Origin: Candidatus Iainarchaeum sp.
GTDB taxonomy: Archaea > Iainarchaeota > Iainarchaeia > JAGGVJ01
Direction of reading: 5' to 3'
Assembly: GCA_021158055.1 (NCBI GenBank)
Contig: JAGGVJ010000021.1
Location: 1 to 16,328, forward strand
Length of the DNA: 16,328 nt
Below are positions 2 to 16,095 of the stretch, one piece after another. The stretch's first letter is position 1. Each line of letters begins with the position of its first letter. A model generated the notes under the pieces. That model was not told the DNA's origin and made no database searches. It saw nothing but the letters and a program-made list of their open reading frames with translations. A program made the position numbers and the translations under genes.

Positions 2-256
2 AAACTTTTTTACTTTTGTTCCGCTGCCTATCAGCTTCCTCATGTGTTTTTGAGCGGTTTCAGGTTCAGAATCCCCTTCACCGACCACGCACGCCGTGGA
101 CGCAAGAATTTTTTTGGTTTCAGTGTTCACGGTTATAGTAACGTGCACGTATTTTTTGTGCCTGCCGCCATACATGCTGGTTTTATACTCTCCCCTGTTT
201 GTCATTTTTATTCCCGTGCCGTCTGAAGTGACGCTTACAAAACCCTTTTCAGGGAC
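2..256 (-). mobile_element. IS5-family DDE transposase fragment; N-terminal part missing, runs off the left edge of the window
   Basis: My translation of the minus frame containing ATG 205-203 gives PEKGFVSVTSDGTGIKMTNRGEYKTSMYGGRHKKYVHVTITVNTETKKILASTACVVGEGDSEPETAQKHMRKLIGSGTKVKKF. This matches the IS5 pattern D(S/G)TG.K..N.GE...K.h.h.V...TK.IL.....D, with the first catalytic Asp at 223-221. The frame has no stop before the window edge, which explains its absence from the ORF track. Upstream the frame is open to a TAA at 382-380, but I see no transposase resemblance beyond about 256. Confidence 0.8.
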
Positions 257-2120
257 TAAAGCCAAAGTTTCAGATGCGGTTCTGGTTGATTTAAGAACGG
301 ATTCGTTTATATCCGCATTGCCGCAGGTTACATACGGCAGGAACAACCTGGAAATTGAGCCGGTTTTCGGCAGTGTTTTTTACACTGACCTGAATGAAAT
401 CCCGTTTGACAGGATCTGCGGGGAATACACATTGGATCTGATAATGAAATATAACGGTGACTTAAATTATATTTCACTCACTCAAAAAGGATTCCATGAA
501 TCGCCGGCCAGCTGCGAAGTTACCCTTGAAAACATGGGAAACACACTAAATTCACTGAACACATTTGTCGTAACAGACAATTACCTGCTTGAAGAAGACA
601 TCAAGCCATTGCTTGCGGGAGCAATTCCCCTGACAAACATGCTCTTGACAGACGACGTGCCTCTTGATGACCTGTCTTTTGCAGACACGATCAAACTGCT
701 GAAAAACAAATCAGGCCTGACTCCGAAAACAATAATCCTGATTGACCCGGACGCAGAGCGAAACAATATTTCTGTCGAAAGATTGTTCCTGAATTTATTC
801 AGGATCCACATTGAGGCGGTAAACCGAGAAAAAGCAGCGAACCTGTTTGAATTTGTAATCATGTCCGGTTCAGAAAGCCCGATGTCGTTTTCAGATCTTA
901 AAATGGTTCTCGGCAGCAAACTAGGTTTCAGCAGGCATGAAATTGGGGATTTGATTGATGTTGATGGTTATTTGGCCAGGGTTGCGGATATTCAGCCGAC
1001 TTTTGCTGGCGGTAAAAATGAGGTTGTTTTTGAGTTGTTTGACGGCAGCGTGCCTATTGCTGTGTTTCCTGAAATGAGCCGGGTTGTTGAGGGGAGCGGA
1101 ACTGATTTCGGCGGCATTACTGGCAGCAGGTTGGTTGTTAAAGATGCGTTTAGCGGCGGTCTGGAAGAAAAACCTTATGTAGTCACGTGTGTTGAGAGGA
1201 AGTCTTCGGTTCCAAAAAACCACAAGTACGGAAACGGTGATGTAATTGATGTAGCAAGTGTTGACGGATACCTGATTGAAGTATCTGACATTGAAAGTTT
1301 TGTCTTCAAAAAAGACGGTGTCTTTTTGACGCTGCTTGACAATGACATAATAATTGACCGGGTGTTTGTCAAAGAAGGTGAAAAAACCGATTTCAACGGA
1401 ATTCTTGACAGCAATGTTTTTGTCTATCATGCTGTCCCTCGCGGTAACGAATTAACAAGTTATGCGGTTTTGTTTGTGGAAAGCAAGTCAATTGTTCTAA
1501 AACGCAACTGCGACTACGGTGACAGGTTGTCTTCAGACAGGTTGGGCATTAAAGATGTTATTGAAGGCATTGGAGAATATTCAGTGGAATTTTCAGACGC
1601 TGATATTGAGGTTGGTTTAATCAGCAAACACAACGAGGAGTACATTTACCTGACTTTGCTTAAAGGCGAAGAGATTATAGCCGAGGAAAAAATATTTTAT
1701 AACGATCACGGGTTCCAAACCGCAACTGATTTCAACGGGATTTTAGACAGCAATGTGATTGTCACACGCTTGTACGTTGGATGTGAGGGAGGGTCTGAAG
1801 CAGGTATTATTGTCGAGAAAAAATCAGTTGGAAAAACAAACATTGTAATCGACAGCAACAAGATGAAAGTAGGCGAGGAAATTGAAATTGACAACAATTA
1901 CAAGGTGCTGCTCAAAGAAGTCTACAGGGGCATGTATTATGGAGAACACGCTGTTTTGGTGTTGTTTAAGGACATGGAGGAAATCAGCAAAAAACCAATA
2001 AAAGACGGCGAATCAACAGACTTTGACGGTCTTGCAGATTTCCATGTAACTGTTCTTGACATGTTCATCGATGCTTTCGAAGATAATTACGCAACCGTAA
2101 ACATTGACTATAAGCATTGA
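96..2120 (+). CDS. Hypothetical protein with four C-terminal ~90-aa beta-rich repeats (S-layer-domain-like); true start uncertain, probably 5'-truncated near 256
   Basis: 674-codon open frame. The repeats share G(D/E).I....Y....D/E.....h.L.L......h..G..TDF.Gh....h.V......h..V(E)..S. The first ~53 codons overlap the transposase fragment in antisense. In-frame ATGs occur at 174 and 444. Confidence 0.7.
   Translation: MDARIFLVSVFTVIVTCTYFLCLPPYMLVLYSPLFVIFIPVPSEVTLTKPFSGTKAKVSDAVLVDLRTDSFISALPQVTYGRNNLEIEPVFGSVFYTDLNEIPFDRICGEYTLDLIMKYNGDLNYISLTQKGFHESPASCEVTLENMGNTLNSLNTFVVTDNYLLEEDIKPLLAGAIPLTNMLLTDDVPLDDLSFADTIKLLKNKSGLTPKTIILIDPDAERNNISVERLFLNLFRIHIEAVNREKAANLFEFVIMSGSESPMSFSDLKMVLGSKLGFSRHEIGDLIDVDGYLARVADIQPTFAGGKNEVVFELFDGSVPIAVFPEMSRVVEGSGTDFGGITGSRLVVKDAFSGGLEEKPYVVTCVERKSSVPKNHKYGNGDVIDVASVDGYLIEVSDIESFVFKKDGVFLTLLDNDIIIDRVFVKEGEKTDFNGILDSNVFVYHAVPRGNELTSYAVLFVESKSIVLKRNCDYGDRLSSDRLGIKDVIEGIGEYSVEFSDADIEVGLISKHNEEYIYLTLLKGEEIIAEEKIFYNDHGFQTATDFNGILDSNVIVTRLYVGCEGGSEAGIIVEKKSVGKTNIVIDSNKMKVGEEIEIDNNYKVLLKEVYRGMYYGEHAVLVLFKDMEEISKKPIKDGESTDFDGLADFHVTVLDMFIDAFEDNYATVNIDYKH
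936..2117 (+). repeat. Four tandem intragenic protein repeats (TDFGGI / TDFNGI / TDFNGI / TDFDGL cores)
   Basis: Visible in the translation. At DNA level 1389-1417 and 1728-1756 match at 26 of 29 positions (both encode DFNGILDSNV). Confidence 0.85.
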
Positions 2121-2151
2121 TTGCAGGTATTGAATATTGAGCCGGCCAAAA

Positions 2152-2168
2152 AAAGAATTAAATTCTTT
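2152..2168. promoter_or_regulatory. Perfect 8-1-8 palindrome upstream of hypE; candidate operator
   Basis: AAAGAATT-A-AATTCTTT lies about 72 bp before the hypE ATG. A second palindrome, AAAACA-GT-TGTTTT, is at 2197-2210. Confidence 0.35.
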
Positions 2169-2240
2169 GCAAGTCATCTTTTTTGCATGGGCAATGAAAA
2201 CAGTTGTTTTTCAAAAGAAGACGGCAAAACAAGAGAAACA

Positions 2241-3302
2241 ATGGCAGAAGCAACAAAAGCACTTCAAGGCAGAATTTCCCTTGCCCACGGGGCAGGCGGA
2301 AAATCAAGCGCGGAACTTTTAGACCTGATTTTTTCAAAAATAGAGCTGAAAAACACGCCCGGCGGAATCGGTATTGACTGCGCGGAAGATTCGGCACTGA
2401 TTAATCTTGTTGACGGCAGCAAAACAATTGCTTTTACAACCGACACTTACACGGTAAAGCCGCTTTTTTTCCCTGGAGCAGACATCGGGTGGCTTTCGGT
2501 TTGCGGAACAGTAAACGACCTTTCTGTCATGGGTGCAAAGCCAGTGGCTGTTTCGTGTTCGCTTGTAATAGAGGAAGGATTTCCGGTTCAAGACCTTGAA
2601 AAAATAATCGGGTCCATGAACCGCGCAAGCAAGACCGCGGGAGTTCCCATTGTTTGCGGGGACACGAAAGTCATGGAAAAAGGAAGCATTGACGGGTTAA
2701 TCATAAACACTGCGGGAATCGGCGAAGTGGCAGACCTGGTAAGGAACAGCGGTGCAAAAGTCGGGGACACTGTCATTGTGTCAGGGCCTGTGGGAGACCA
2801 CGGGATTGCCTTGCTGTCAGTCCGCGAAGGGCTATCCTTTGAAACCTTGCTTGAGTCAGACGCAGCCCCCCTCAATACCCTTATGCAGTCAATACCTTTG
2901 CCTCACGCCGCAAAAGACCCCACCAGAGGCGGGCTTAACTCTGCATTGAATGAAATCGCCCTGAAAAGCTCCATACCTTCTTCTCACGCCCTTGGCAGAG
3001 GGATTGAAATAAGAATTGATGAAGACAAGATTCCGGTCCGAAAAGAAGTGAAGGCGGCGTGCGCAATGCTTGGGCTTGATCCATTGTCTGTCGCGTGCGA
3101 AGGAAGAGTGGTTGTCTGCACTGACAAGCCCACAGAAACACTTGAAGCCATGAAATCACACCCTCTTGGAAAAGGAGCGCAGGCAATCGGGCGCGTGACG
3201 GAAAAAACAGGCAAGAGCAAGGCAGGGGTTTTTCTCAGGACAGCTGAAGGGGGAACCAGGGTTTTAAGGATGCAGGACGAGGTAATTCCAAGAATTTGCT
3301 GA
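2241..3302 (+). CDS. hypE: [NiFe]-hydrogenase maturation protein HypE (carbamoyl dehydratase)
   Basis: Motifs I.LAHGAGG, FTTDTYTVKPLFFPGADIG, GTVNDL, GDTKV, INTAGIG, KDPTRGGL and the diagnostic C-terminal PRIC. I place the start at ATG 2241 (MAEATK) rather than TTG 2121. Confidence 0.97.
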   Translation: MAEATKALQGRISLAHGAGGKSSAELLDLIFSKIELKNTPGGIGIDCAEDSALINLVDGSKTIAFTTDTYTVKPLFFPGADIGWLSVCGTVNDLSVMGAKPVAVSCSLVIEEGFPVQDLEKIIGSMNRASKTAGVPIVCGDTKVMEKGSIDGLIINTAGIGEVADLVRNSGAKVGDTVIVSGPVGDHGIALLSVREGLSFETLLESDAAPLNTLMQSIPLPHAAKDPTRGGLNSALNEIALKSSIPSSHALGRGIEIRIDEDKIPVRKEVKAACAMLGLDPLSVACEGRVVVCTDKPTETLEAMKSHPLGKGAQAIGRVTEKTGKSKAGVFLRTAEGGTRVLRMQDEVIPRIC

Positions 3303-3330: not shown

Positions 3331-5652
3331 ATGAAAATCTTGATAAAAGGGACTGTCCAGGGAGTGGGGTTTCGCCCGCATGTTTTCTCGCTTGCGAAAA
3401 AGCACTCTGTGAAAGGTTTTGTGAGGAACGCGGGGCCAGACGTTGAAATAATCGCAAGCGGCAGCGTTTCAGAAAAATTTCTTGACGGACTTGTTTCGCT
3501 TGCCCCCCCGCTTGCAAAAATAACATCCGTTGAAGTTGACAAAACCGCTTTTGCGCACAGTGAAGATTTCAAAAATTTTGAGATAGTTTCAAGCTGTATT
3601 ATTGACGGAAACAATTTCAGGCTGCCTGTTGACTCGCGTGTCTGCGACAAGTGTCTGGCAGATCTTTCCGAAGCCAAAAACAGGCGGTTCGGTTACTTTT
3701 TGACTGCCTGCACTGACTGCGGTCCGCGTTTTTCAATAGGGGAAAAAGTTCCTTTTGACAGGGGCAACACTTCTTTTTCAGATTTTTCTTTTTGTCCGGA
3801 CTGCGAAAAAGAATTTTCAAATCCAGGTGACCGCAGGTTTTTTGCCCAGACAATCTCCTGCAGGGAATGCGGGCCAAAGCTTGAGCTTGAAGAAAAACAC
3901 GGCGCAAGAACAGCGGGATTTGCGGAAAGAGGAGACGAGATAGAAAAGATAGAAAGGACTGCAGAGCTTTTGAAAAAAGGAAAAGTTGGGCTTGTTAAGG
4001 GCTGGGGGGGATTTCACTTTGTGATGGATGCAACTTCGCCGAACGTGAAGGGTTTCAGGAAGCAAACATTTAGGGGAAACAAGCCGTTTGCGGTGATGGC
4101 AAAAGACCTCAAGTCAGTTGAAGAGTTTGCGCAGCCGACAAAACACGAAAAAAAACTGCTTGAGTCAAAAAAAAGACCCATTGTTCTCGTGGAAAAAAAA
4201 GAAAACAAAGAAAACGCGTTGTCTCTCCAAAACGAAAAATTAAATGAATATGTTTCGCCAAACCTTCACACTGTCGGTGTCATGCTTCCTTATTCACCGC
4301 TTCATTACCTGTTGTTTGAACTGATTGATTTTCCCCTGGTGTACACTTCCGCAAACAAGCCGGGGCTTCCGACAATCGTGTCTGGCGCAGAAGCGCGAGA
4401 GCTTTTCACTGCGGTTGATTCGCCGGTAGATTTTTTGCTTTCAGACAACCTTGAGATAAAAAACCGCTGTGACGATTCTGTTGTCCGGATGCAAGGCGAA
4501 AGGCCTCTTTTTCTGAGGCGAGGCAGGGGAAATGTTCCAGGCATGCAGAAACTTTCATTTAAATTTGAAAAAACAGTTTTTGCGCTTGGGGCAAGGCGCG
4601 ACTGCTCAATTTCCGTTGCTTCAAAAGGCATGCTTTTCCAGGGGCCTTACATCGGAAAAGCAGACTTTTTGGAAGTATCGCAGCAGATGCGCCTGGAGTT
4701 TGAAAAATACGTGTCCTGGTTTGGAAAACCCGATGTTATCGCATGCGATCTTCACCCCCAGTTTGAGTCAACAGTTCTTGCGAAAGAGTTGAGTGAGAAG
4801 TTATCGGTTCCTTTAATCCCTGTGCAACACCACTGCGCGCATTCTTTTTCACCTGTTTTTCACGAGAACGGGTTTTCACCGCAAGATGACTTTGTCTCAA
4901 TAGTGTGCGACGGCACAGGGCTTGGCAGCGACGAAGTTCTCTGGGGCGGGGAGGTGTTTTTGCGCAAAGACGGGGGGTTTGAAAGAGCAGGGCATCTGGC
5001 GCAAAAGCCTTACTTTGGAGATGCTTCCGCGCGGGAGCCGTTGAAAACCGCTGCTTCAATGCTTTTTGAAAACTTTGGTGAGGAAAAAACCTTTGAAGTT
5101 CTTCAAAGAGCTTACGGCAAAGAAGAATCAAAGTTTATCCTGTCATGCCTTGGAAGCGAGGGAAGCGCGACGACAAGCACGGGAAGGGTGCTTGACGCGG
5201 TTTCTGCATTGCTTGGGGTATGCACTAAAGCGACTTTTGAAGGGGAACCGGCAATGCGGCTTGAAAGCTCTGCCTTGGGCGGCGATTCATGCGCTCTTGA
5301 AAAAGAGCTTGAGCTTGAAATATCAAAAAAATCAGGAAAACTAATCCTTGAAACTTTCCCGTTGCTTGACGTTTGTGTCGGTTTTGAAAACAAGGGGATT
5401 TCCGGGAAAGACCTGGCGGCTTCCATTCAAAGAGCCCTCGGGCTCGGCATCGGGAAAGTTGCGCGCGAAGTGATTGAAAGCAACGGGATTGAAAAAGTTG
5501 TTTTAAGCGGGGGAGTGGTGTTTAATTTGGCGTTTGCGAAAGCCGTTGAAGAAGGGACTGGTGGTTCTGCTCAAGTGCTTGTCTGCCGGTGCCCGGGAGA
5601 TGCCGGAATTTCAGCAGGGCAGGCGGTTTGGGCTGCAGGCCTTCGTCTTTAA
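3331..5652 (+). CDS. hypF: Carbamoyltransferase HypF
   Basis: Acylphosphatase domain (GTVQGVGFRP, GFVRN), two zinc fingers (CDKC/CTDC, CPDC/CREC), YrdC-like domain (KGWGGFH, KPFAVM, TSAN, DDSV), Kae1-like domain (DLHP, QHHCAH, DGTG, TSTGRVLDAV, SGGV, GDAGISAGQA). Confidence 0.97.
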   Translation: MKILIKGTVQGVGFRPHVFSLAKKHSVKGFVRNAGPDVEIIASGSVSEKFLDGLVSLAPPLAKITSVEVDKTAFAHSEDFKNFEIVSSCIIDGNNFRLPVDSRVCDKCLADLSEAKNRRFGYFLTACTDCGPRFSIGEKVPFDRGNTSFSDFSFCPDCEKEFSNPGDRRFFAQTISCRECGPKLELEEKHGARTAGFAERGDEIEKIERTAELLKKGKVGLVKGWGGFHFVMDATSPNVKGFRKQTFRGNKPFAVMAKDLKSVEEFAQPTKHEKKLLESKKRPIVLVEKKENKENALSLQNEKLNEYVSPNLHTVGVMLPYSPLHYLLFELIDFPLVYTSANKPGLPTIVSGAEARELFTAVDSPVDFLLSDNLEIKNRCDDSVVRMQGERPLFLRRGRGNVPGMQKLSFKFEKTVFALGARRDCSISVASKGMLFQGPYIGKADFLEVSQQMRLEFEKYVSWFGKPDVIACDLHPQFESTVLAKELSEKLSVPLIPVQHHCAHSFSPVFHENGFSPQDDFVSIVCDGTGLGSDEVLWGGEVFLRKDGGFERAGHLAQKPYFGDASAREPLKTAASMLFENFGEEKTFEVLQRAYGKEESKFILSCLGSEGSATTSTGRVLDAVSALLGVCTKATFEGEPAMRLESSALGGDSCALEKELELEISKKSGKLILETFPLLDVCVGFENKGISGKDLAASIQRALGLGIGKVAREVIESNGIEKVVLSGGVVFNLAFAKAVEEGTGGSAQVLVCRCPGDAGISAGQAVWAAGLRL

Positions 5653-5730
5653 GTACAAATCCGGTTTTCCGGTTTTTTTAAAATTTATATCTTCAAAAGT
5701 AATATAAAGCCATATTCAATAGATGGTGAT

Positions 5731-6255
5731 ATGACAATGACTACCGGTGGTCGAGTTATTGAAATTGTGCAGGATATGGATAGATCCATCTCGGTTATGT
5801 ACAATGCAGGTACCTGGCTTAAAACATCAGGTAAAAAACTTTCAAAGTGGAGGAAACCTGAAAACTTAAACCGCGATTTTTTATTGCAATATGTGAAACC
5901 TGATGAATTCTATGTTGTTCTGGTTAATGGAAGACAAGCAGCAGCTGCTATTCTTCAATTTGATCAAAATAGTCAGGATTGGAAATGTGTTGATAAAAAT
6001 AAAACCATACATGCATTGTATATTCATTGGTTATGTGTTGAACGTGAATATACAAGCACAGGATTGCCAAAAGTAATTATGGATTTTGCTGAACAAAAAG
6101 CGATTGAAAATGGCATCATTTTTTTAAGAGCAGACACTAATGCACAAATTATGAAATTAATGAAAATATATGAAAAATTGGGATTTGATCTGATTTCTAT
6201 AGAACAAAAAGATTATCGTCAAACCGCATTTTACCAGAAACCAGTAAGAAAATAA
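5731..6255 (+). CDS. GNAT-family N-acetyltransferase
   Basis: ALYIHWLCVEREYTSTGL motif A, LRADT, and L..IYEKLGF motif B. GGTGA RBS at 5725-5729. Strongly A/T-ending codons. Confidence 0.88.
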   Translation: MTMTTGGRVIEIVQDMDRSISVMYNAGTWLKTSGKKLSKWRKPENLNRDFLLQYVKPDEFYVVLVNGRQAAAAILQFDQNSQDWKCVDKNKTIHALYIHWLCVEREYTSTGLPKVIMDFAEQKAIENGIIFLRADTNAQIMKLMKIYEKLGFDLISIEQKDYRQTAFYQKPVRK

Positions 6256-6281
6256 GTTACGAGGCAGTCCACTTCAATTTT

Positions 6282-7169
6282 TCATTTCCTTGCAACTTTT
6301 TTCATTGTGGAAGCGTCAATGATTGTTGAAACCGGCTTGTTTTTTTTCCCGCCGTCAATGTAGACCGCAACCCCTTGCCCGAAGTATTCCATTGCTTTTT
6401 TAGCAGTTGTTGCGGGCGGTTTCCCTGTTTTGTTTGCGCTTGTGGCAGTCACCGGGTTCCCGAGCATTGAGATGAGCCTGCACACCCATTTTTCATCAGG
6501 GATTCTCACACCGATTCTTTCAAAACCAACTGCCGCTTCACGCAAAAACTCATTTTTGGGCACAAGCAAAAAAGTAAACGGTCCGGGAAGCTTTTCCTCG
6601 ATTTCTTTTGCGTTTTCTTTTTCAAAAAACCTCCAGAGCATTTTTTTGCCGGAAACAAAAACCGGAAGCGGTTTTTCCAGATTGCGTTCTTTCAAGGCAT
6701 AAATCCGCTTGACTGCCAGCGGGTCGGCCACGTCTGCAAGCATGCCGTAAACCGTGTCGGTCGGTGCCACCACCACAAGCCCGTCTTTCAGGGCGTTTGC
6801 CGCAACACTCAGTGATTTTGAGTCGTCCTGGTTCAGCGCCGCAAGAGACTCCCGGTTTGTTTTGTCTTTTGCTTTTTCAGGGTAAAAGATTCTTTTTTTT
6901 GAATGGTCTCCGAAGTTTACTTTGAACTTTTCGTGTATCTCGCGCTCAAACAGCTCTGCTGAAGGAGAAAACCATTGAAAAGAAGGTGCTTTTTTGCTGC
7001 TTATCCTTACTGCAAGGCTTATCTGGTGGCGCCCGACAAAATGATAAACAAGGTGCAGGGCGTCTGACTCAAATGCGGAAATGTAGGCAAGGCGGTGGTC
7101 GGCGTGAAGTTTTTTTGCCTGCTCAAGCAATTCCTCTTGCGTTACATATTTTAACGACTGCAGTTTCAT
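6282..7169 (-). CDS. Fusion: N-terminal complex I 30-kDa/NuoC-like (EchD/MbhK-type) domain + C-terminal L-threonylcarbamoyladenylate synthase (TsaC/YrdC) domain
   Basis: Residues 1-~98 contain LVYHF and PSF...SPSAELFEREIHEKFKVNFGDH..RIFYPE (30-kDa subunit ERE..D.FG..F.GH motif). Residues ~112-295 contain PTDTVYG, IYALKER..KPL, LPGPFT, GVRIP, TSAN and STII (TsaC). There is no Sua5 C-terminal domain. Confidence 0.85.
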   Translation of the reverse strand: MKLQSLKYVTQEELLEQAKKLHADHRLAYISAFESDALHLVYHFVGRHQISLAVRISSKKAPSFQWFSPSAELFEREIHEKFKVNFGDHSKKRIFYPEKAKDKTNRESLAALNQDDSKSLSVAANALKDGLVVVAPTDTVYGMLADVADPLAVKRIYALKERNLEKPLPVFVSGKKMLWRFFEKENAKEIEEKLPGPFTFLLVPKNEFLREAAVGFERIGVRIPDEKWVCRLISMLGNPVTATSANKTGKPPATTAKKAMEYFGQGVAVYIDGGKKNKPVSTIIDASTMKKVARK

Positions 7170-7208
7170 TTGAAGTCCTTTTCCGTTTTAAGGCAAATCG
7201 TGCAAAGA

Positions 7209-8741
7209 TCATTCAACTGACTGGATAATGATTTTTTTAAGTACCACAGGGTGCCGTTTTTCAAGGTAGCTGATTGCCGATTCAAGCTTTTGCTTGTTTT
7301 CAGCATGCACTTCAAACAAAATGTCTCCCTTATGCACTTTTTCTCCCACGACCTTGTGAAAGTACAAGCCTGCCTTTTTGTCTTTCGGCGAACCCGCGAT
7401 CCTTGCAAGAAGGTTTGTTTTTTTGTTGCTTATCTGTTCAATGTAACCCTCTCTTTTTGAGAGCACATTTTTTTTGTATTCTGCAAGCTTGATTGATTTT
7501 GAAGTCACGGTTGATTTCCCGCCCTGCATCTTGATTATCTCGCGCATTTTTTTAAGGGCCAGGCCGTTTTCAATTGTTTTTTTTGCAAGGTCAAATCCGT
7601 TTCCCTTTTCCGCTTTCCCGGTCATTTCCAAGAGCACTCCGGCAAGCTCGCATGACTTTTCCCCAAGATCGTCGAAAATTTCTCCTTCAAGGGTCCGCAG
7701 AACAGCCCTTGCCTCGAGAGCCGGCCCGACAGCCCTTCCGATTGGCTGGTCTCCCTTTGTAATCAATGCCTCTGTTTTTATGCCGAGCCGTTTTCCTATC
7801 TCAACAAAATCGTCTGCAAGTGCTTTTGCGTTTTTAAGGGTTTTTACTTTGGTGTCAGGGCCCATCGGAATGTCAATTATCAGGTGGTTTGACCCGACAG
7901 ACGCCTTTTTGGCCATGACGCTTGCAATGACCTGTCCGCGGGGGTCTGCCCTCAACGGGTGCTCCACTTTGATGATTATGTCATCTGCGGGTGCAAGGCT
8001 CACCGCCCCGCCCCACGTGATAACAGCGCCGATTTTGTTTGTTATGCTCTTTATTTTTTCAAGGGGCAAATCCACAGGGCACAACACCTCCATGGTGTCT
8101 GCGGTTCCGGCAGCGCTTGTAATTGAACGCGAGGAAGTTTTCGGCATGCATAAACCGTTTGCAGCAAGTATTGGGACCACAAGCATTGTGGTTCTGTTTC
8201 CCGCCACGCCGCCGATGCAGTGCTTGTCCACAATTAGCGGCTTTTCAAATTTGATTTTTTCCCCGGAGTCAATTATCGCCCTGGTCATGTATTCAACTTC
8301 ATCCATGTTCAAGTCATTTATGTACATGGCCGTGACAAAGGCAGCGAGTTCAATTTGGCTCAAATTGTTTTCAATTATATCATTTACTATCTTGTATATC
8401 TCGGATTTTTCAAGAACCTGGTCGTTCATTTTCTTTTTTATGTACAGCATCGACTCCGGCGGTGAAGAGGGCTCAAGGAAAATTTCCTGCCCTTCTTTCA
8501 GGTTCAGTTTTTCGGCAAGCTCAAGTGACACGCCCACTTCGTCTTCTTTGACAAGCCGCGTGGTTTCGTTTACAATTGCTGTTATGTCATCGTTGTTTGC
8601 GCCGCAGACCTTTACGCGGTCTTCGATGTTTATCCCGAGTTCTTTCATGTCATTCGGGTGCATTACAATGACAAGGGGACCGCCTGTCGTAAGGTCTAAA
8701 AGTTTCACTTTGACTGGTATCGAATAAATCTTGACTTCCAT
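7209..8741 (-). CDS. deoA: AMP phosphorylase (archaeal NMP phosphorylase, thymidine phosphorylase family)
   Basis: DKHCIGGVAGNRTT, PKTSSRSITSAAGTAD, WGGAVSLAPADD, QPIGRAVGPALEA. It has the N-terminal extension domain and 510-aa length typical of AMP phosphorylase. Confidence 0.95.
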   Translation of the reverse strand: MEVKIYSIPVKVKLLDLTTGGPLVIVMHPNDMKELGINIEDRVKVCGANNDDITAIVNETTRLVKEDEVGVSLELAEKLNLKEGQEIFLEPSSPPESMLYIKKKMNDQVLEKSEIYKIVNDIIENNLSQIELAAFVTAMYINDLNMDEVEYMTRAIIDSGEKIKFEKPLIVDKHCIGGVAGNRTTMLVVPILAANGLCMPKTSSRSITSAAGTADTMEVLCPVDLPLEKIKSITNKIGAVITWGGAVSLAPADDIIIKVEHPLRADPRGQVIASVMAKKASVGSNHLIIDIPMGPDTKVKTLKNAKALADDFVEIGKRLGIKTEALITKGDQPIGRAVGPALEARAVLRTLEGEIFDDLGEKSCELAGVLLEMTGKAEKGNGFDLAKKTIENGLALKKMREIIKMQGGKSTVTSKSIKLAEYKKNVLSKREGYIEQISNKKTNLLARIAGSPKDKKAGLYFHKVVGEKVHKGDILFEVHAENKQKLESAISYLEKRHPVVLKKIIIQSVE

Positions 8742-8845
8742 TTCTTCAGCTCCGTAACCGGTTTTGGTTGTTTGCAGTTTCTTTTGTTTTTCAGTGATCT
8801 GGTTGTTTTTTTATACATTTTTTACAGGTGATGTGAACTTGTTTT

Positions 8846-9775
8846 TCAAAGCGTGTTTAGTTCTGCTGCGTCCCGAACCATTGACGAAATGAATGTTTGA
8901 GGGGTAAGCACGCCCATCTCGCAGATTATTCCGCGCACGAGTTCGATTTCAGTGCAGTCAAAAGCAGGGTTCAGCACTTTCAGGTTTTTTTGAAGCGCTG
9001 ATTTTATCACTTCAAGGGAACTCCTGTTTTCTATGGGTTCAAGAAAGCCCTGCAAAGTCAAAGGGTCAAACTTGTGCGACGAAGTGCACACGTAATGGTG
9101 CGCTTCCTCTGCCTTTGCAGCAAGGGAAATAAGCGACGTGCCTATTTTGTTCACCACGAAACCGTCGGAAGTAATCGCGTCTGCGCCTGAAAAAAACAAA
9201 TCAACGTCATTCATTATGTGACGCGCGGCAGAATCAACTATGAGAGTTGTGTTTATGCCGTAGGTTGAGAGTTCTTTTGCGCTTATCCTTCCCTGAAAAA
9301 GCGGCCGTGTTTCAGTGCATATGACACTGAATTTTTTTCCCTTGTCAAACGCCCTTTTAATCACGGCCATTACTGTGTTACTGTGGCAGTGAATCAGGAT
9401 GGTGCTGTTGTCCGGGATAAGGTTTGAGCCAAACTCGCTTATTTTTTCGTGTTCTTTCGGGAGTCTTAAGAGATAATCTTTGCAGGCGGAAATAGTCTTG
9501 TTTTTTCTTTTTTCAAATTCTTTTTCCTTTCCGGCTTTCAGTATGATGTACTTCAATGCGTTTCTGAGCATCGGTTCGGTTGGCCTTGAAGACGCAAGGA
9601 TTTTCGCGTTTTTTTCAAGTCCGGCCATGAATCCTTTTGCAGGTTCTTTTTCTGTTTCCCTTGCCCAGTAAAGAACAGCGCGCACTGCTTCTTTTGCAAC
9701 ATTTCGCGCCCCCTGAATTTCAAGGCGCTTTATTTTGCCGGCAGAGATCCTGATTTTGTTTTTTGTGTTTTGCAT
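8846..9775 (-). CDS. Ribose-1,5-bisphosphate isomerase (eIF-2B alpha/beta/delta family)
   Basis: IQGARNVA, RPTEPMLRN, HCHS (catalytic Cys), ETRP..QG, GADAIT (catalytic Asp), NKIGT, NPAFD. Adjacent to AMP phosphorylase. Confidence 0.92.
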   Translation of the reverse strand: MQNTKNKIRISAGKIKRLEIQGARNVAKEAVRAVLYWARETEKEPAKGFMAGLEKNAKILASSRPTEPMLRNALKYIILKAGKEKEFEKRKNKTISACKDYLLRLPKEHEKISEFGSNLIPDNSTILIHCHSNTVMAVIKRAFDKGKKFSVICTETRPLFQGRISAKELSTYGINTTLIVDSAARHIMNDVDLFFSGADAITSDGFVVNKIGTSLISLAAKAEEAHHYVCTSSHKFDPLTLQGFLEPIENRSSLEVIKSALQKNLKVLNPAFDCTEIELVRGIICEMGVLTPQTFISSMVRDAAELNTL

Positions 9776-9799
9776 GCAATTTAATAAAGTAAAAAGAGG

Positions 9800-9810
9800 T
9801 TATTAATTTT
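9800..9810 (-). promoter_or_regulatory. Putative BRE/TATA box for the isomerase-AMP phosphorylase-fusion unit (near-leaderless)
   Basis: The minus strand reads AAAATTAATAA about 25-35 nt upstream of ATG 9775, and no Shine-Dalgarno sequence is visible. Confidence 0.35.
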
Positions 9811-9957
9811 GCCCCATATTGCTTTAGTTTTATTTCTGCGTTGTTTTAGTTTTGCTTTTGCGGATTATCTTGTTGTTTCAGATTTGCCGGCACATTATCC
9901 GGGAGGGTTTTACCGTTACAGCATCGCGGTTTTTTTAAAAAAGCGCAGTTTGTAGCA

Positions 9958-9969
9958 TTTATTTAAATA
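9958..9969 (+). promoter_or_regulatory. Putative TATA box for ftsZ-secE
   Basis: TTTATTTAAATA matches the archaeal TTTAWATA consensus. GGAGG RBS at 10154-10158. Confidence 0.4.
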
Positions 9970-10164
9970 CTTCTTTAGTCATAGAATATGCAATAGTCAT
10001 TGCGCAAAAGAGTGTGTTGCATGTCCGCGGTCCAGTGCCGGGTTCAATAGTACAGCATAGCTTTTTGTGGGGTTAAGGAACCGCATGCTGTTTGTTTTTC
10101 TTTTGCAGGAGAGCTGCAGTTTAATGCACTGGTTTTTGGATAATACGTTTCTTGGAGGGTTCTT

Positions 10165-11292
10165 ATGAAATCAATCATAAAAAAAGCAGTTAAAAACGCC
10201 AAAAAAGACACTGTAAAAAAAAGCAGGATAGCAGTTGACGATGATGACGAGCTTATAAATATTCTTGAAAGATGCTCTGCGAGAATAAAAGTGGTTGGTG
10301 CAGGCGGTTCAGGAAACAACACGCTTAACAGGATGGTTGAAATCGGAATTGTCGGCGCAACAACCCTTGCAATCAACACTGACGCACAGCACCTTGTGAA
10401 CACGAAATCCGACTCAAGGCTTTTGCTTGGGCAGGAAATCACAAAAGGGCTCGGGGCAGGTTCAAACCCGGAAATAGGGGAAGCTGCGGCCAGGGAAAAC
10501 ATTGACGAGTTGAAAGAACTGCTCAAGGGAAACGACATGGTATTCATCACCGGCGGAATGGGCGGCGGGACAGGAACCGGAAGCGCTCCCGTTGTTGCAG
10601 AAGTCGCAAAAGACCTTGGCATGCTGACAGTCGCAGTAGTCACACTGCCTTTCTCGGTCGAGGGAAACAGAAGGCGGGACAACGCGCTTGAAGGGCTCAA
10701 CAAGCTCAAAAAACACGCTGACACAGTGATTATTATTCCAAACGACAAGCTTCTTGAAGTCGCACCCGACCTGCCGATAACAGCAGCGTTCAAGGTGGCA
10801 GACGAAGTGCTTGTCAACGCAGTAAAAGGGATAACAGAAATGATCACAAAACCAGGTCTTGTAAACCTTGACTTTTCAGACCTCAAGACAATCCTCAACC
10901 ACGGCGGAGCCGCAATGATCGGCCTCGGGGAATCGGAGGGACAGGAAACAGGCGAGGCAAGAGCCCTTGAAGCAATTGAAAACGCTTTGAGTTCACCTCT
11001 TCTTGACGTTGACATAACTGATGCTTCAAGAGCGCTCATCAATGTCACCGGCGGAAACAGCATGACCTTAAGGGAAGCGGAAATGATTGTCGAGGCAGTC
11101 AGTTCAAGGATTCACCCGAACGCCCACATAATCTGGGGTGCAATGATTGACGAGGAAGTCACCAAAAACACCATTCAGGCAATGGTTGTGATAAGCGGAG
11201 CCAGATTCCCGTACCTTGAAGACGGGGGAACAATGCAGAAAGCCACTGATGCCAAAGAGGGAGTGGACCTGGAACTTGATTACGTGGACTGA
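10165..11292 (+). CDS. ftsZ: Cell division protein FtsZ (FtsZ1 type)
   Basis: VVGAGGSGNN, INTD, GAGSNP, tubulin signature GGGTGTG, T7 loop NLDFSD. Upstream of secE and spt5, as for archaeal ftsZ1. Confidence 0.99.
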   Translation: MKSIIKKAVKNAKKDTVKKSRIAVDDDDELINILERCSARIKVVGAGGSGNNTLNRMVEIGIVGATTLAINTDAQHLVNTKSDSRLLLGQEITKGLGAGSNPEIGEAAARENIDELKELLKGNDMVFITGGMGGGTGTGSAPVVAEVAKDLGMLTVAVVTLPFSVEGNRRRDNALEGLNKLKKHADTVIIIPNDKLLEVAPDLPITAAFKVADEVLVNAVKGITEMITKPGLVNLDFSDLKTILNHGGAAMIGLGESEGQETGEARALEAIENALSSPLLDVDITDASRALINVTGGNSMTLREAEMIVEAVSSRIHPNAHIIWGAMIDEEVTKNTIQAMVVISGARFPYLEDGGTMQKATDAKEGVDLELDYVD

Positions 11293-11318
11293 AATGCAAA
11301 ACTGATTAAGGTGTTTTA

Positions 11319-11534
11319 ATGGTTAAAAGAATTGGAAAATTGTTTACTGGGATAAAAAGTTACCTGAAAAATTTTATTGCTTCGTCAAAAAGGGTGCTTA
11401 AGATTTCAAAAAAGCCGTCCGGTCCCGAGTTTAAAAGAATTGCCCAGATAACCGGAATCGGATCTTTTCTCATCGGAATGGTCGGATTTGTGATTTACTT
11501 GGCTTTTAATGTGGTTAAATTGATTGCTCTTTGA
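11319..11534 (+). CDS. secE: Protein translocase subunit SecE/Sec61-gamma
   Basis: RVLKISKKPS..EF..IA..TGIG...IG..GF.IY with a single C-terminal TM helix. AAGGTG RBS. Conserved gene order. Confidence 0.95.
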   Translation: MVKRIGKLFTGIKSYLKNFIASSKRVLKISKKPSGPEFKRIAQITGIGSFLIGMVGFVIYLAFNVVKLIAL

Positions 11535-11764
11535 TGGATAGATCAATTGCTTTTTGATTTGTTTTGATTTGGTTGCTTGTTTGCCTGTGGTTTTCGGCTA
11601 AACAACCATTTTTAATAATCAATTGCCTTTAGTATTTTAGTTATATCCTTTAGTGTATATTATTATTTTTAAATGAATTATTATTCTAATGATAATGGAT
11701 CATGTTTAACAATAATGTATTATATTTAACAATGATGACAAATTATTTTTAACGGACTGATTTT

Positions 11765-12211
11765 ATGATTTACAGTGTTAGAACAACAGTCGGACAGGAA
11801 AAAACAGTCGCTGATATGATAACAAGGCGCGCCAAGCAACAAAATGCACCCATATATTCGGTTTCAATAATCGACAATTTGAGAGGGTACGTGCTTGTGG
11901 AATCAGAGTCAGAAGTAGTTGTAAGAACAGCTATTTTTGACATGTCCCATGTCAAGGGAGTGATTTCCGGTTCAATGGAAATGAAAGACGTTGCTCACCT
12001 GTTTGAAGCAAAGCCGATTTTGAGCGGTGTTGAAGTCGGTGCCTTAATCGAACTTGTGGCGGGACCGTTCAAGGGAGAACGCGGCAAAGTAAAACGAATT
12101 GACAACACAAAAGAAGAAATAACCATTGAACTGATTGAGTCAGCGGTTCCGATCCCGATAACCGTCAAGTCAAACTACATAAAAGTGATTGACAAGGGAA
12201 AAGGAAAATAA
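11765..12211 (+). CDS. spt5: Transcription elongation factor Spt5 (archaeal NusG)
   Basis: IYSVRTTVGQE, LRGYVLVE (NGN domain), GPFKGERGKV (KOW motif), VPIPITV. Confidence 0.97.
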   Translation: MIYSVRTTVGQEKTVADMITRRAKQQNAPIYSVSIIDNLRGYVLVESESEVVVRTAIFDMSHVKGVISGSMEMKDVAHLFEAKPILSGVEVGALIELVAGPFKGERGKVKRIDNTKEEITIELIESAVPIPITVKSNYIKVIDKGKGK

Positions 12212-12215
12212 GGGC

Positions 12216-13346
12216 TTAATTTTTAGGTTTAGATGAAAGAATAATACCGGAATCTTTAAAATATTTTTTCGCGGCAATTGTCCATAACTGCGGATCGCAC
12301 CCTCCTTTTTTGATTTCAGGATTATTTAAGATAAATGTTTCAGGGGCAGTGTCCAGTTTTGATTTAATCCTTAAACTTACTTCTTCCACGTGTTTCAGGC
12401 TTTTTGCAAGACCTGCAAATTTATATTTTTCCGCCCAGATTCTGTGTTTTGCTGCCCCGCTGTTAATTATTGCCTGTTCAAAAGGCCAGACTGCCCTGGA
12501 ATGATACTCTGATTTTATGTTATCTGCTGCTTTTCGTTCAAGTGTCCTGTACCCGATGGGTGTTTCAAGTTTTTTTGATGTTTCAATAATTCCTTCCAGT
12601 TGTTTGTTTTTCAGGTCCCCGGGTTCAAGGTAAAAAAGCATGTGCAGGAAATCAGAGTTTATTGCTTCAATAGGTCCTTCTTTGTCAAGGGCAATGTAAA
12701 ATTTGTTTGATTTTTGTTCATATAATTTTTCCATGCCCTTCATCATTTTTTCCGCAACCCTGAAATATTCGGGGTTTAATAGTTTTGCAGCGCATTTCAT
12801 TCCCTGCATATTCTGGACATGCGCCAACAAGTAGCACACAGGATAAGCAGGTTCGCCGTTTTTCCTGTTTATTATTTCAGAATCTTTCCAGTAAGTTACT
12901 TTTAATGCAAATTTTTTTGCATTGCAGAATTTTGGGTCTTCCATGAATAGGTTATTTTGATTGAGATGGGAGATGATATATTTTGTTGCATTTTCTATGT
13001 TTTTCTTTTGGCGCTCTGCCAGACTTTTATCACCAGTCAAATCTATATAAAATTTGTGCCCTATCAGGAACAGGGCGGTTGTATCGCAGGCATTAAATTT
13101 GGTTGTTAATCCTCCCCAGTTTGCCGCAGGATATTCATGAACTATTTTACCGGGTTCTTCCCCGCTTTTAGGGTTTTTGTTTACCCCTTGTTCATGAGTG
13201 CAGAAATTGAGCTGGCTTTTAAGCATTTTTGAGTTTCTGGAAAGAATTGCGGATATAATACTGTCTCTTGTAAAATTTTTTGGAAAATTAGGAAGACCTG
13301 CATTATAGAGAGTGAATCCCAGATATTTTGTTTTGAGTCTCTCCAT
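12216..13346 (-). CDS. Amylo-alpha-1,6-glucosidase/glycogen-debranching-like (alpha/alpha)6 glycoside hydrolase, catalytic domain only
   Basis: Variants of family motifs: FTRDSII (FGRDS), GEEPGKIVHE, DTTALFL (DATPLF), WKDS, GYRTL, YHSRAVWP (YHNGSVWP), CDPQLW (CSPQAW). AT-rich. Confidence 0.8.
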   Translation of the reverse strand: MERLKTKYLGFTLYNAGLPNFPKNFTRDSIISAILSRNSKMLKSQLNFCTHEQGVNKNPKSGEEPGKIVHEYPAANWGGLTTKFNACDTTALFLIGHKFYIDLTGDKSLAERQKKNIENATKYIISHLNQNNLFMEDPKFCNAKKFALKVTYWKDSEIINRKNGEPAYPVCYLLAHVQNMQGMKCAAKLLNPEYFRVAEKMMKGMEKLYEQKSNKFYIALDKEGPIEAINSDFLHMLFYLEPGDLKNKQLEGIIETSKKLETPIGYRTLERKAADNIKSEYHSRAVWPFEQAIINSGAAKHRIWAEKYKFAGLAKSLKHVEEVSLRIKSKLDTAPETFILNNPEIKKGGCDPQLWTIAAKKYFKDSGIILSSKPKN

Positions 13347-13438
13347 AAACTTAATTTGATTTAAGTTATATATATTTGTTAAATATTTTCAAAGCGATTT
13401 ATTAAATGTTTTAATAGTTCTTTGAGAGAGATTATATC
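13347..13438. promoter_or_regulatory. AT-rich divergent promoter region
   Basis: 92-bp spacer between head-to-head genes with TATA-like TTATATATA and TTTATTAAA elements. Confidence 0.45.
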
Positions 13439-14137
13439 ATGGCACCTGTCAGCACCGCGGGAGACAGCGGATTTCTCGGGTTTATAATCGCGGTTTTTGC
13501 GATTCTTTTTGCGTCGTACATAATTTCCGAAGTTTTTCGGCTTTTTGACTTCTTGTCTATCTTTCTGCTTTTGTCGTTTTCTGCAGTCGCAGCCAAATTT
13601 TTGCTGTTTTCAGGGGAAAATGCAGATTCTTCAAAGCCGTGGATGGGCAGAAAAGAGATTATTTTTGAAGGGGTGGCAAGCAAAGAGCCAAAACCGTTCA
13701 GGCCTGAAAAGACAGCGGAACAAGTGCCTGAAATAGAAGTCAAGGGCAGTAAAATTGTTTCCTTTGATGTTGAAGACGACTATGTTGTCATGATCCGCGA
13801 CCTTCTTTCAAAAGCAGAAGGGCAAATCAAGGAAGGCTGGTTTGAAGAATCCGTTTCAAACTGCCGGCTTGTCTTAAGCTACTTTCTGCAAAGGCTTTGC
13901 GAGGCCTACGACGTGGAATACTCCCGCGATGACTGGGGGGAAATAGTCCCCAAGCTTGAAATGAAGGGTGTCCACCTGCCTTACGAAAGGATATGGTGGA
14001 TTAACCGCGAGCGCGCAAGCATCCAGCACCCCAACTTCGAGAAAACAACGGAAGAAGAGGCAATGCAGGCGCTGGAGATTACAAAACAAGTCCTGGCAGG
14101 CGTGGAAGCCCAAAAATTGGGGTTTAAAGCGAAATAA
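13439..14137 (+). CDS. Membrane protein: two N-terminal TM helices, linker, C-terminal HEPN-like domain with RX4H
   Basis: Hydrophobic segments at about residues 12-33 and 36-57. The C-terminal helical pattern L.KAE..I..G.FEESV..CR..L...L..L ... RASIQH ... T.EEA..AL....VL follows HEPN/DUF4145 layout. The motif is at 14012-14029. Confidence 0.7.
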   Translation: MAPVSTAGDSGFLGFIIAVFAILFASYIISEVFRLFDFLSIFLLLSFSAVAAKFLLFSGENADSSKPWMGRKEIIFEGVASKEPKPFRPEKTAEQVPEIEVKGSKIVSFDVEDDYVVMIRDLLSKAEGQIKEGWFEESVSNCRLVLSYFLQRLCEAYDVEYSRDDWGEIVPKLEMKGVHLPYERIWWINRERASIQHPNFEKTTEEEAMQALEITKQVLAGVEAQKLGFKAK

Positions 14138-14253: not shown

Positions 14254-16095
14254 TTAGCAGGAGCCGCCCACATCAACGTTTGCGGAAGAAGGCATTTCAA
14301 GGTCAATGTCGCACCCTGAAAGGTCCGGGTTTTGCAGGCACACGCCTCTCTGCACTGTGTCTATGCTGTAGCCCCGCAGGAAAATGCTGTTGTTCACAAG
14401 CCAGGTCGGTGAAGCGGTTATGCCGAGCTCGTCTGTAAATGCAATGCTTTCTTCAAGAAGCTTTGTCCCTTCGACTCCTTTTGCGCATTCTTCAACGCTT
14501 GTCGCGTCAATTCCCGCGTTGCCCGCACACTCCGCAAACATATCTCCAATGTTCCTGTAATCGGCGTTTGCGCATTCAAGGTAGTCAAGCAGCTTGTCAG
14601 GGTAGTTTTCCATTATGCACACTTGCCTCAGGTTCTCGTCCACTTCGTTTTGGCCGTGAAGGCTTGAGAAATTACCGTCGCCGTTGCTTTCAGCAATGAA
14701 CCGGATGTTGTATTCAAGGTCAGGCATTGACTTGACCATTTCTTTCAAAGTGGCTTCAGCCATTGTTCCGTAAGGGCACTGGCTCATCACAAACAAGTCA
14801 ACAGTGTTTTTGATTTCTTCCCTTCCGATAGTTTTTATCGGGGCAGTGTTCAGCAAATACAAACTGTTTTCTGTTTCCGTAAGGTATTGTTCTATCACGC
14901 CGAACTGCTCGTGTTTTTCAACGTTGTCCGGGTAAAAGAAGTATGCCGGAAGCCCGCTTATCTCGGCTTCTTTTATGAGCTCCTGTCCTTCAACCGAATC
15001 CATGTCAATTTCCTTGATGGCAAGGTTTGAGAAAAGCCCTTTGATTGAGCCGATCATCTGTGCAGGATCGCACAAGGCGCAAGTTTTGTCGTTTAAGATA
15101 AGCAGGTTTATCTCCTGTTCGGGAGGCAGGTTTTTGCACACTTCGCTTTCAGAGGCAAACTTGCATATTGCGCGTTTCAGTGAGATGGGATCGCGCCTTC
15201 CGCTGTACGGTTCTCCGTCAATGTAAAAAGTCGGCGAGCCGGATATTCCAAGCTGTTTTGCGCGCTTTATGTTCTCGCTTAAAAGAGTTTTTCCTTCTTC
15301 CCCCAAAGCACACGCTTCAAGTTCTGTTATCTCTTCCGCGGTCAATCCCGCGGTTTCAGCGGAAGCTCCCCAGTCCTTTTTGCCATGAGAAAGGTTGTCT
15401 GCAACAGCCAGCAGGTAGTCAAACAGTTTTCCATGCGAGTTTTTCAGCACGCACAACTGCCTGGTGTCTTCCTCTACTTCAGGCTGGCCGTGAAGGCTTG
15501 AAAAAGAGCCGTTGCCTGTTTCTTCTGCAATGAAGTAAATGTTGAATTCAACTTCTTTCCCGAACTCTTCAAGAACAGGTATGAGTGACTTTTCTGCCCG
15601 GGTCCCGTGAGGACAATAGCTCATGGCAAAAAGATCCACTTGAGTAAGCGCGTCTTCATATATCTCACCACTTCCATTTGCGGGTTCAGTTCCGCTCCCG
15701 CCGCCGCTTCCTGCGCCGCCCGCGCCTCCCCCTCCGCTTCCTGCGCCCACGCTTGTGTTTTGGTCTTCAGGGGGAATTACCATATTGACCGTTCCCCCTT
15801 GAGGCGTGCCTATGAGTCCTTCAAGCGCACCGTTGCCGATGGACACGGCGGCAAAAACAAGGATTATCGCGGCAACTGAAAACAGCATAATCTTTGAAGA
15901 ATCAAACGGTTTGGGTTGTTTTGGTCTTGATTCGTTTTCAGGGCCTTTTTCGGCAACTTGTTCTTCACCAATTTTTTTGGCTTCAGATTGTGGTTGAGAT
16001 TCTTCTGCGTGCCTGTCTTCTTCTTTTCTCGGGCTCAAAGCAGTTTTTTTTGCATTTGCATTTCTTTTGTGCTTGTTTGATTTCTTTTTTGACAT
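14254..16095 (-). CDS. Membrane-anchored multi-domain thioredoxin-fold (DsbA/GILT-like) protein
   Basis: Charged N-terminal tail, TM helix (IMLFSVAAIILVFAAVSIG), Gly-rich linker, two homologous domains (DLFAMSYCPHG..SSLHGQPEV..GISGSPT; DLFVMSQCPYG..SSLHGQNEV..GITASPT) flanking a CALC..GLP domain. GAGGTG RBS at 16106-16101. Confidence 0.85.
   Translation of the reverse strand: MSKKKSNKHKRNANAKKTALSPRKEEDRHAEESQPQSEAKKIGEEQVAEKGPENESRPKQPKPFDSSKIMLFSVAAIILVFAAVSIGNGALEGLIGTPQGGTVNMVIPPEDQNTSVGAGSGGGGAGGAGSGGGSGTEPANGSGEIYEDALTQVDLFAMSYCPHGTRAEKSLIPVLEEFGKEVEFNIYFIAEETGNGSFSSLHGQPEVEEDTRQLCVLKNSHGKLFDYLLAVADNLSHGKKDWGASAETAGLTAEEITELEACALGEEGKTLLSENIKRAKQLGISGSPTFYIDGEPYSGRRDPISLKRAICKFASESEVCKNLPPEQEINLLILNDKTCALCDPAQMIGSIKGLFSNLAIKEIDMDSVEGQELIKEAEISGLPAYFFYPDNVEKHEQFGVIEQYLTETENSLYLLNTAPIKTIGREEIKNTVDLFVMSQCPYGTMAEATLKEMVKSMPDLEYNIRFIAESNGDGNFSSLHGQNEVDENLRQVCIMENYPDKLLDYLECANADYRNIGDMFAECAGNAGIDATSVEECAKGVEGTKLLEESIAFTDELGITASPTWLVNNSIFLRGYSIDTVQRGVCLQNPDLSGCDIDLEMPSSANVDVGGSC

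Follow-up and report, generated by a model that had tools for sequence, protein, structure and literature searches.

The 30-kDa subunits of the NuoC type are known from complex I and from related hydrogenases, e.g., as MbhK (6cfw), Nqo5, NdhJ and NDUFS3, and where such a module has been built into a longer polypeptide, as in the NuoC-NuoD fusions (Escherichia coli NuoCD; HycE, 7z0s_E), it is N-terminal and its partner is its structural neighbour in the complex. TsaC, the threonylcarbamoyl-AMP (TC-AMP) synthase that serves the N6-threonylcarbamoyladenosine (t6A) modification of tRNA, is also found in fused form: HemK, HypF and TobZ fusions are described in the available parts of PMC4615747 and PMC10321239, and a literature listing adds a modular TsaD-TsaC-SUA5-TcdA enzyme. 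A fusion of NuoC to TsaC is mentioned neither in those parts of the two papers nor in what our literature searches returned. Such a fusion is encoded by an open reading frame (ORF) at positions 6282 to 7169, minus strand, of the stretch analysed here (the window), which is the whole 16,328-nucleotide (nt) contig C6 of an archaeal genome (Candidatus Iainarchaeum sp.) from hydrothermal vents (45 contigs, 1,147,527 bases, estimated to be 94.9% complete). Its NuoC-like module is N-terminal, as in the NuoC-NuoD fusions, but the partner acts in tRNA modification and is not known to be connected with the complex. We put at about 0.5 the probability that this is a genuine, lineage-restricted gene fusion that originated by near-neutral read-through, and in which the N-terminal domain is still the 30-kDa module of a hydrogenase and tethers a working TsaC.

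The fusion ORF (P0001; 295 amino acids (aa), the coordinates including the stop codon) starts with ATG and runs for 295 codons without an internal stop. Residues 1-98 (6876 to 7169, minus strand, as for all parts of the ORF) make up the NuoC-like domain in its short form, as judged by PF00329, an alignment (A3) and an AlphaFold2 (AF2) model searched with Foldseek; they include the ERE motif at 75-77 and an R-I-F-Y-P-E tail at 93-98. A charged linker of low model confidence follows (residues 99-114, KAKDKTNRESLAALNQ; 6828 to 6875), and residues 115-292 (6294 to 6827) are the TsaC domain, identified by PF01300 and TIGR00057. A sequence-only reading of this DNA had proposed a single 295-aa frame with both domains, their motifs and linker intact, and a TsaC without a start of its own, and on each of these points it was right. 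The ORF call and Pfam agree on the single frame, PF00329 and PF01300 both match (41.2 and 140.1 bits), and every motif is there, i.e., ERE, PTDTVYG (136-142), KxR (KER, 160-162; nt 6684-6692), RIP (222-224), SxN (SAN, 244-246; nt 6432-6440) and ST (STIID, 281-285), together with the linker segment EKAKDKTNRE at residues 98-107. The first internal methionine is M143, and a reading of the codons from codon 90 to V132 found no start codon (ATG, GTG or TTG), so that the TsaC domain could be made only within the fusion.

Several lines of evidence place the N-terminal domain in the NuoC family. PF00329 (Complex1_30kDa) matches residues 9-100 with 41.2 bits (E 3e-10) against a gathering cut-off of 22.5, and in a six-frame scan of the genome the fusion ORF, at 43.5 bits, was its one match. 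Hidden Markov models (HMMs) of the NuoC proteins of the class, built without the fusion protein and run against 13,737 six-frame segments, likewise picked out the fusion ORF alone (E 1.4e-9 and 3.2e-14, the next best being 0.13 and 0.16). Alignment A3 sets the domain beside 26 of the class's NuoC proteins. Its columns A71 and E75 do not vary, and conservation reaches 90% or more at S31, H43, P69, E77, E80 and F95; the domain keeps the conserved core columns P69, A71, E75, E77, E80 and F95, and its residues 93-98 (RIFYPE) align with the NuoC motif R-x-F-L-P. An AF2 model of residues 1-110, made from an alignment of 28 NuoC-type sequences, had a mean predicted local distance difference test score (pLDDT) of 81.6 and a predicted TM-score (pTM) of 0.70, residues 103-110 being disordered. 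A Foldseek search of the PDB with this model returned 51 matches (E <= 0.001); the 50 of them that were listed (TMq 0.63-0.69) were all complex I, NDH-1, isolated Nqo5 (5b3p, 5b3q), NuoC (3mcr) or Mbh (6cfw_K). The domain shares with the NuoC-type 30-kDa subunits the beta-alpha-beta-beta-beta-alpha fold and the P-x-A-E-x-x-E-R-E core, and its predicted contact with the large subunit runs, as in them, via the sheet. It differs from them in being short, without some 45 N-terminal residues and the C-terminal P-W-R-K-D-like motif, in being encoded outside the operon, and in carrying an unrelated enzyme at its C-terminus.

The architecture was rare wherever it was searched for. Among the 120 best matches listed from a word-indexed search of 5.8 billion proteins, only P0002, of the fusion's own cluster, had both Pfam domains, and with residues 1-110 alone as query P0002 was the sole match among the near-length proteins listed. 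A HMMER search of 1.84 billion representatives returned 19,173 proteins at E <= 0.001; in the best 150 of these the top-scoring stretch always lay in the TsaC part, from residue 101 or later, except in P0166, a PurE fusion whose matched stretch starts at residue 75. PF00329 occurred in none of 17 N-terminally extended matches picked from those 150, the partners there being PurE, DUF167, a PrmC-type methyltransferase, Cu-oxidase_4 and SUA5, and the partners of TsaC among the matches were PF00731, PF02367, PF02594, PF02578 and methyltransferases. TsaC is likewise fused in Sua5, TsaC-PrmC/HemK, PurE-TsaC, TsaC-TsaE, DUF167-TsaC, HypF and TobZ but, unlike the fusion here, none of these has a Complex1_30kDa partner among the matches listed. 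JGI metagenome contigs yielded no relative when scanned either with P0001 or with alignment A1, and the ESM Atlas offered only TsaC clusters, with a score of 0.75, below the 0.9 taken as the level of a lead.

Closer to home, the comparison set was 215 GTDB genomes, all of them class-level relatives (a search of the phylum returned the same 215). With P0001 as query, 143 of them gave a match at E <= 0.01; residues 1-295 were matched across in the source genome only and in none of the other 214. The TsaC/Sua5 matches all begin at about residue 100 of P0001 or later, and three genomes (G004, G176 and G087) matched the N-terminal domain only, the contigs concerned having no match to TsaC. One TsaC match, in a 293-aa frame of G018, was considered as a fusion candidate and rejected; its frame simply runs off the contig end. 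As far as these searches reach, the NuoC-TsaC architecture is new and confined to one shallow lineage.

A fusion this restricted invites the suspicion that it is an artefact, i.e., that a homopolymer or assembly error joined two separate genes, and there is a place where this could have happened. A run of eight A (A8; T8 on the plus strand) covers codons S90-R93 at 6893 to 6900, directly past H89, and H89 is exactly where the NuoC-like ORF of the nearest relative ends. The genome holds 570 runs of this type, so the tract is unremarkable in itself. The junction was compared with contigs of four sequencing runs from three studies, and among the differences listed there was no indel at the domain junction or in the A8 tract, a result that concerns assembled contigs rather than reads, with 152 further differences outside the listing. 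Contigs of two runs of one hydrothermal-vent study (X1 and X2) cover 5600-7900 with two to three differences. X1 is possibly the source of the window itself, which, like the use of contigs in place of raw reads, leaves the artefact some room; X2 has C>T at 6866, which gives D102N in the linker, and the same change is present in the database representative P0002, whose cluster has three member sequences on two contigs. More distant contigs also span the junction: one from a cold seep (X3, second study, about 93% nt identity) runs over 6094-7189 with 76 substitutions, its only indel listed around the ORF being at 6259-6261, outside it, and another (X4, also a cold seep, third study, about 90% nt identity) runs over 6750-7145 with 39 substitutions and no gaps. 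These relatives could possibly carry a stop-creating substitution. The agreement of X1 with X2, the passage of X3 and X4 through the junction without an indel listed inside the ORF, and the variant in the P0002 cluster all speak against an error. So does the lack of a start codon for the only TsaC if the frame were split. We therefore regard an artefact as very improbable.

Some features of these contigs are recorded here for their own sake. In X3, 53 other letters take the place of the spacer that separates the fusion ORF from the AMP phosphorylase gene upstream (7189-7200), and 22 letters are inserted just past the fusion stop (6259-6261). An X4 contig with a loose end at 6875 was set aside as an unrelated match, as it overlaps, judging by the bin depths, by only some 25 bases of A-rich linker.

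The sequence-only reading had said that close relatives all encoding the two parts separately would speak against it, and this is partly the case: the closest ones, P0124 and P0003, are two ORFs. P0124 (89 aa) is 76% identical, without gaps, to residues 1-89 and ends in ...FGSH, while P0003 (196 aa) is 77% identical to residues 102-295 and begins with a methionine of its own (MSDSTKKESL). For each, an ENA contig of 2,019 bases is given as the source. The near-equal identity of the two parts suggests that both have been under similar constraint, i.e., purifying selection, and that the neighbourhood of nuoC and tsaC is older than the split of the two species. As the RIFYPE tail is kept here and absent from P0124, the direction of change could be either way, a fusion in the present lineage or a fission or truncation in the other. 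It follows from the split relatives that a covalent fusion is not required in the wider lineage, and that the fusion may be a near-neutral read-through.

The check suggested earlier for a group-4 operon lacking its 30-kDa gene had a positive outcome. Contig C20 carries the operon of an Mbh-like group-4 [NiFe] hydrogenase in the order NuoL-like (595 aa), large subunit (413 aa), a 196-aa hydrophobic membrane protein, NuoM-like (431 aa), and NuoB-, NuoH- and NuoI-like, and HMM scans found no NuoC gene in it. The fusion lies on C6, i.e., not beside the large-subunit gene. The C20 large subunit retains the ligand motifs RICGICS and DPCFAC, and its nearest solved relatives are MbhL (6cfw_L, E 2.9e-75) and HycE (7z0s_E). 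Its gene (L009:4591-5832, minus strand) also encodes a tail of about 45 residues past DPCFAC, with an S-C-E-S-C-E-S-C-E-S-C-E-S repeat and a final cysteine, which may be a cleavable or metal-binding extension. The Hyp set of the genome comprises HypC-HypD, HypE and HypF. HypC and HypD are themselves joined, in a 412-aa ORF on contig C31 (L073:1501-2739, plus strand; start MCLAV..., HypD following in frame), which makes two hydrogenase-related fusions in one genome.

Across the class, PF00329 had 27 matches in 26 of the 215 genomes, those outside the source genome lying in open frames of 114-228 aa. A comparison of coordinates by eye places 25 of these 26 outside matches upstream of a match to the group-4 large subunit, at a distance of at most 200 nt. 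The lone exception is G176: its operon (7929-13841, followed by HypA) is rearranged in the same way and likewise nuoC-less, and its 108-aa NuoC is an orphan that lies some 4.6 kb upstream of that operon (L031:3001-3327). The G176 operon shares its order with that on C20 (NuoL-like, large subunit, antiporter-like, NuoB, NuoH, NuoI), and its short NuoC is encoded outside the operon, as in the source genome; unlike the fusion, it stands alone and not next to tsaC, which is on another contig. G004 has the canonical order NuoB, NuoC (114 aa), NuoD, NuoH, NuoI, and in G056 the NuoC slot is taken by a 90-aa ORF missed by Pfam; the short form of NuoC, without the roughly 45 N-terminal residues, is common to these three genomes and the source genome. 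In the large-subunit tree the source genome pairs with G176 (91/78), a grouping to be taken with caution as both are long branches. A scan of genome contigs with the large subunit found only two unrelated NuoD loci, at 30% identity.

The N-terminal domain (A3) was co-folded with the C20 large subunit (A4), on alignments made for this analysis. The pair scored 0.88 and the best of three controls 0.00; a mark of 0.88 is reached by 116 of 157 solved complexes and by 2 of 215 mismatched pairs, counts that, owing to the use of our own alignments, calibrate the score only roughly. The runs agreed in at least 62% of contacts with a partner pLDDT of at least 75, and the predicted contacts involve the sheet (residues 26-33 and 41-53) and the 67-77 segment, the linker lying outside the interface. 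Hence the co-fold proposed by the sequence-only reading passed its controls, with the proviso that it may reflect a memory of solved complexes. Of the interface residues, 18 of 23 are the same in P0001 and P0124, as are 50 of 66 other residues (a hand count), and this conservation does not discriminate between the readings.

An alternative is that the fusion is real but the N-terminal domain is no longer a hydrogenase subunit, the hydrogenase being NuoC-free or decaying, and the module having been co-opted by TsaC, fused to it here and separate from it in the relative. The points that count in favour of this alternative also count, for the most part, against a retained hydrogenase role. With its 43.5 bits the domain is the weakest of the 27 PF00329 matches of the class; that match ends at model position 109 of 124, and the NCBIfam model TIGR01961 (NuoC_fam) gives the fusion protein only 21 bits against a cut-off of 122.45. 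A C-terminal motif of the type P-(W/L)-R-K-D, a general hallmark of NuoC, is absent past residue 98 in A3, whereas long forms keep it; the C-terminus is truncated. In the NuoC tree the source genome and the 76% identical relative sit at short tips on a long stem (2.11), without a settled placement. P0124 is cut shorter still, at residue 89, before the conserved R-x-F-x-P tail, and the link to tsaC has been kept in two species while that to the operon was lost; from the shared figure of 2,019 bases, the genes for P0124 and P0003 would be adjacent on one contig, about ten codons apart. The NuoB-like frame on C20 (L009:2620-2735, minus strand) has no ATG, GTG or TTG ahead of its first cysteine motif (SCNGC): where G176 has ATG-GGN-GAY, there is here an out-of-frame TTG, one extra A, and then GGT GAT, an anomaly that may reflect a fault in the assembly, an unusual start, or a lesion in a hydrogenase that is decaying. 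The group-4 hydrogenases Eha and Ehb, moreover, are not known to have a NuoC homologue. Two further points weigh against the retained role more generally. Since NuoC-NuoD complexes are solved (6cfw, E. coli complex I), the co-fold is a measure of likeness and not of binding, and the roughly 5% of the genome that is unassembled could hide another nuoC or tsaC.

Against co-option, the branch of the large subunit is about as long (1.8), so that the domain is not specially accelerated, and the branch lengths of NuoC and the large subunit run parallel in the five divergent lineages. In G176 an orphan NuoC has been kept with the same operon layout and no tsaC nearby. The source genome has the Hyp set and an undamaged large subunit with its ligand motifs in place; a NuoC-type subunit (6cfw_K) is part of Mbh, the closest relative with a solved structure; and the co-fold score stood well clear of its controls. 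Co-option is, in our view, a serious alternative, albeit one that we hold to be on the unlikely side.

On the TsaC side, PF01300 (Sua5_yciO_yrdC) matches residues 126-292 with 140.1 bits (E 7.1e-41), and the equivalog model for L-threonylcarbamoyladenylate synthase, TIGR00057, matches residues 115-289 with 141.2 bits against a cut-off of 123.2. The KxR/SxN tetrad (K160, R162, S244, N246) is present and aligns to solved TsaC/Sua5 proteins; the available part of PMC10321239 describes it as an orthologue filter. The best solved match for residues 120-287 is MTH1692 (1jcu, E 2.8e-23), a single-domain archaeal YrdC/TsaC whose PTDTxYG, KxR and SAN motifs align with those of the fusion and which, unlike the fusion, has no N-terminal domain. 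A SUA5 domain (PF03481) was found neither in the fusion protein by Pfam nor in the genome by six-frame scan, and by its sequence the enzyme part is of the TsaC type and not of the Sua5 subtype. The proposal that the NuoC domain stands in for SUA5 found no support, as TsaC proteins that consist of one domain and have no SUA5 are frequent among the matches and the N-terminal domain keeps its NuoC fold. A second tsaC or sua5, which was also to be looked for, was not found: the six-frame scan of the genome gave two PF01300 matches, the fusion ORF and HypF. Neither a NuoC-like module nor a stand-alone TsaC was thus found outside the fusion, in an assembly that is about 95% complete.

The presence of HypF raises another question, namely whether the YrdC-like domain might be a hydrogenase maturation factor, with a HypF-like carbamoyl-adenylate chemistry that the NuoC domain brings to the hydrogenase, and have nothing to do with t6A. 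YrdC-like domains do carry out carbamoyl adenylation in HypF and TobZ, according to the available parts of PMC10321239 and PMC4615747. The setting is also suggestive, as a HypE-like maturation gene with AIRS and AIRS_C domains (2121 to 3302, plus strand) and a gene for the carbamoyltransferase HypF (3331 to 5652, plus strand) are nearby, the latter ending 630 nt from the fusion ORF. However, this HypF is complete by Pfam, with its acylphosphatase, two zinc fingers, YrdC-like and Kae1-like domains, and the fusion protein passes the cut-off of TIGR00057 while scoring only 23.7 bits with the hypF model TIGR00143 (cut-off 466.1). Kae1, found on contig C20 (234 bits), needs a source of TC-AMP, for which the fusion is the only candidate, and the fusion is on the opposite strand to hypE and hypF, apparently co-transcribed with genes of AMP salvage. 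A role in hydrogenase maturation is, of all the explanations weighed, the one we find hardest to credit.

Taken in this light, the fusion as a genuine gene with a retained hydrogenase module can be given a plausible history and role, in which we infer the docking, the activity of TsaC, and the direction and neutrality of the fusion. The nuoC gene of the Mbh-like group-4 hydrogenase would have left its operon and landed directly upstream of tsaC, after which the stop and start between the two would have been lost in this species to give one protein of 295 aa. The N-terminal domain (1-98), as the sole NuoC module for the C20 hydrogenase, would most likely dock by the face of its beta-sheet on the large subunit; the C-terminal domain (115-292), as the only threonylcarbamoyl-AMP synthase, would, judging by its family membership, supply Kae1 for t6A; and TsaC would hang, by a flexible linker some 16 residues long, from the cytoplasmic arm of that hydrogenase in the membrane. 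Among the three options offered by the sequence-only reading, a TsaC docked on a membrane hydrogenase is thus the one favoured, and the substitution for SUA5 is without support. The fusion as such probably arose near-neutrally, by reading through from one gene into its neighbour, and not as a coupling by design.

A stronger version would have TsaC as an obligatory covalent passenger on the peripheral arm of the energy-converting hydrogenase. The step with which t6A synthesis begins, and which consumes ATP and bicarbonate, would then take place at the main redox and ion-translocating complex of the cell and perhaps be regulated by it. In a variant of this idea, slippage at the A8 tract (6893-6900) would yield a free NuoC-like protein of about 97 aa beside the full fusion and so set their ratio. 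Such functional coupling, with an adaptive meaning for the fusion, seems to us improbable.

The remainder of the window offers some context. Upstream of the fusion on the same strand, at a distance of 39 nt, is a gene for AMP phosphorylase (7209 to 8741, minus strand; TIGR03327, 616 bits against a cut-off of 535), and the two are probably co-transcribed. It is preceded by an IF-2B-family gene (8846 to 9775, minus strand; PF01008, 241.8 bits) that is nearest to ribose-1,5-bisphosphate isomerase, albeit under the cut-off of that model (TIGR00511, 266 bits against 314.1). These two genes (7209-9775) are parts of an archaeal AMP-salvage route, and t6A synthesis releases AMP; their position upstream of the fusion may be coincidence. 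Pfam also identified a GNAT acetyltransferase gene on the strand opposite to the fusion. Neither Pfam nor NCBIfam, at the thresholds applied, matched a 674-aa ORF at 96-2120 (plus strand), whose end is 1 nt short of the HypE-like gene. A 613-aa protein encoded at 14254-16095 (minus strand) has both Thioredoxin_4/DsbA-like and GILT domains, a combination that is unusual in a small-genome archaeon.

If the N-terminal domain is a working 30-kDa subunit, then this archaeon would have an essential enzyme of translation fidelity bolted to a membrane hydrogenase, a kind of link between tRNA modification and energy metabolism that did not turn up in our literature searches, including those on the group-4 hydrogenases of DPANN archaea. 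The locus would become far more interesting if it turned out that the cell depends in some way on TsaC being docked on the hydrogenase. If, on the other hand, the fusion is neutral, it would be a caution against inferring function from Rosetta-stone fusions, as TsaC fuses with many unrelated partners. Beyond the question of function, the locus is a clean natural example of the reshuffling of complex-I-type modules in reduced archaeal genomes: nuoC is found outside its operon in two lineages, that of the source genome and that of G176, and in the former it has merged with its neighbour.

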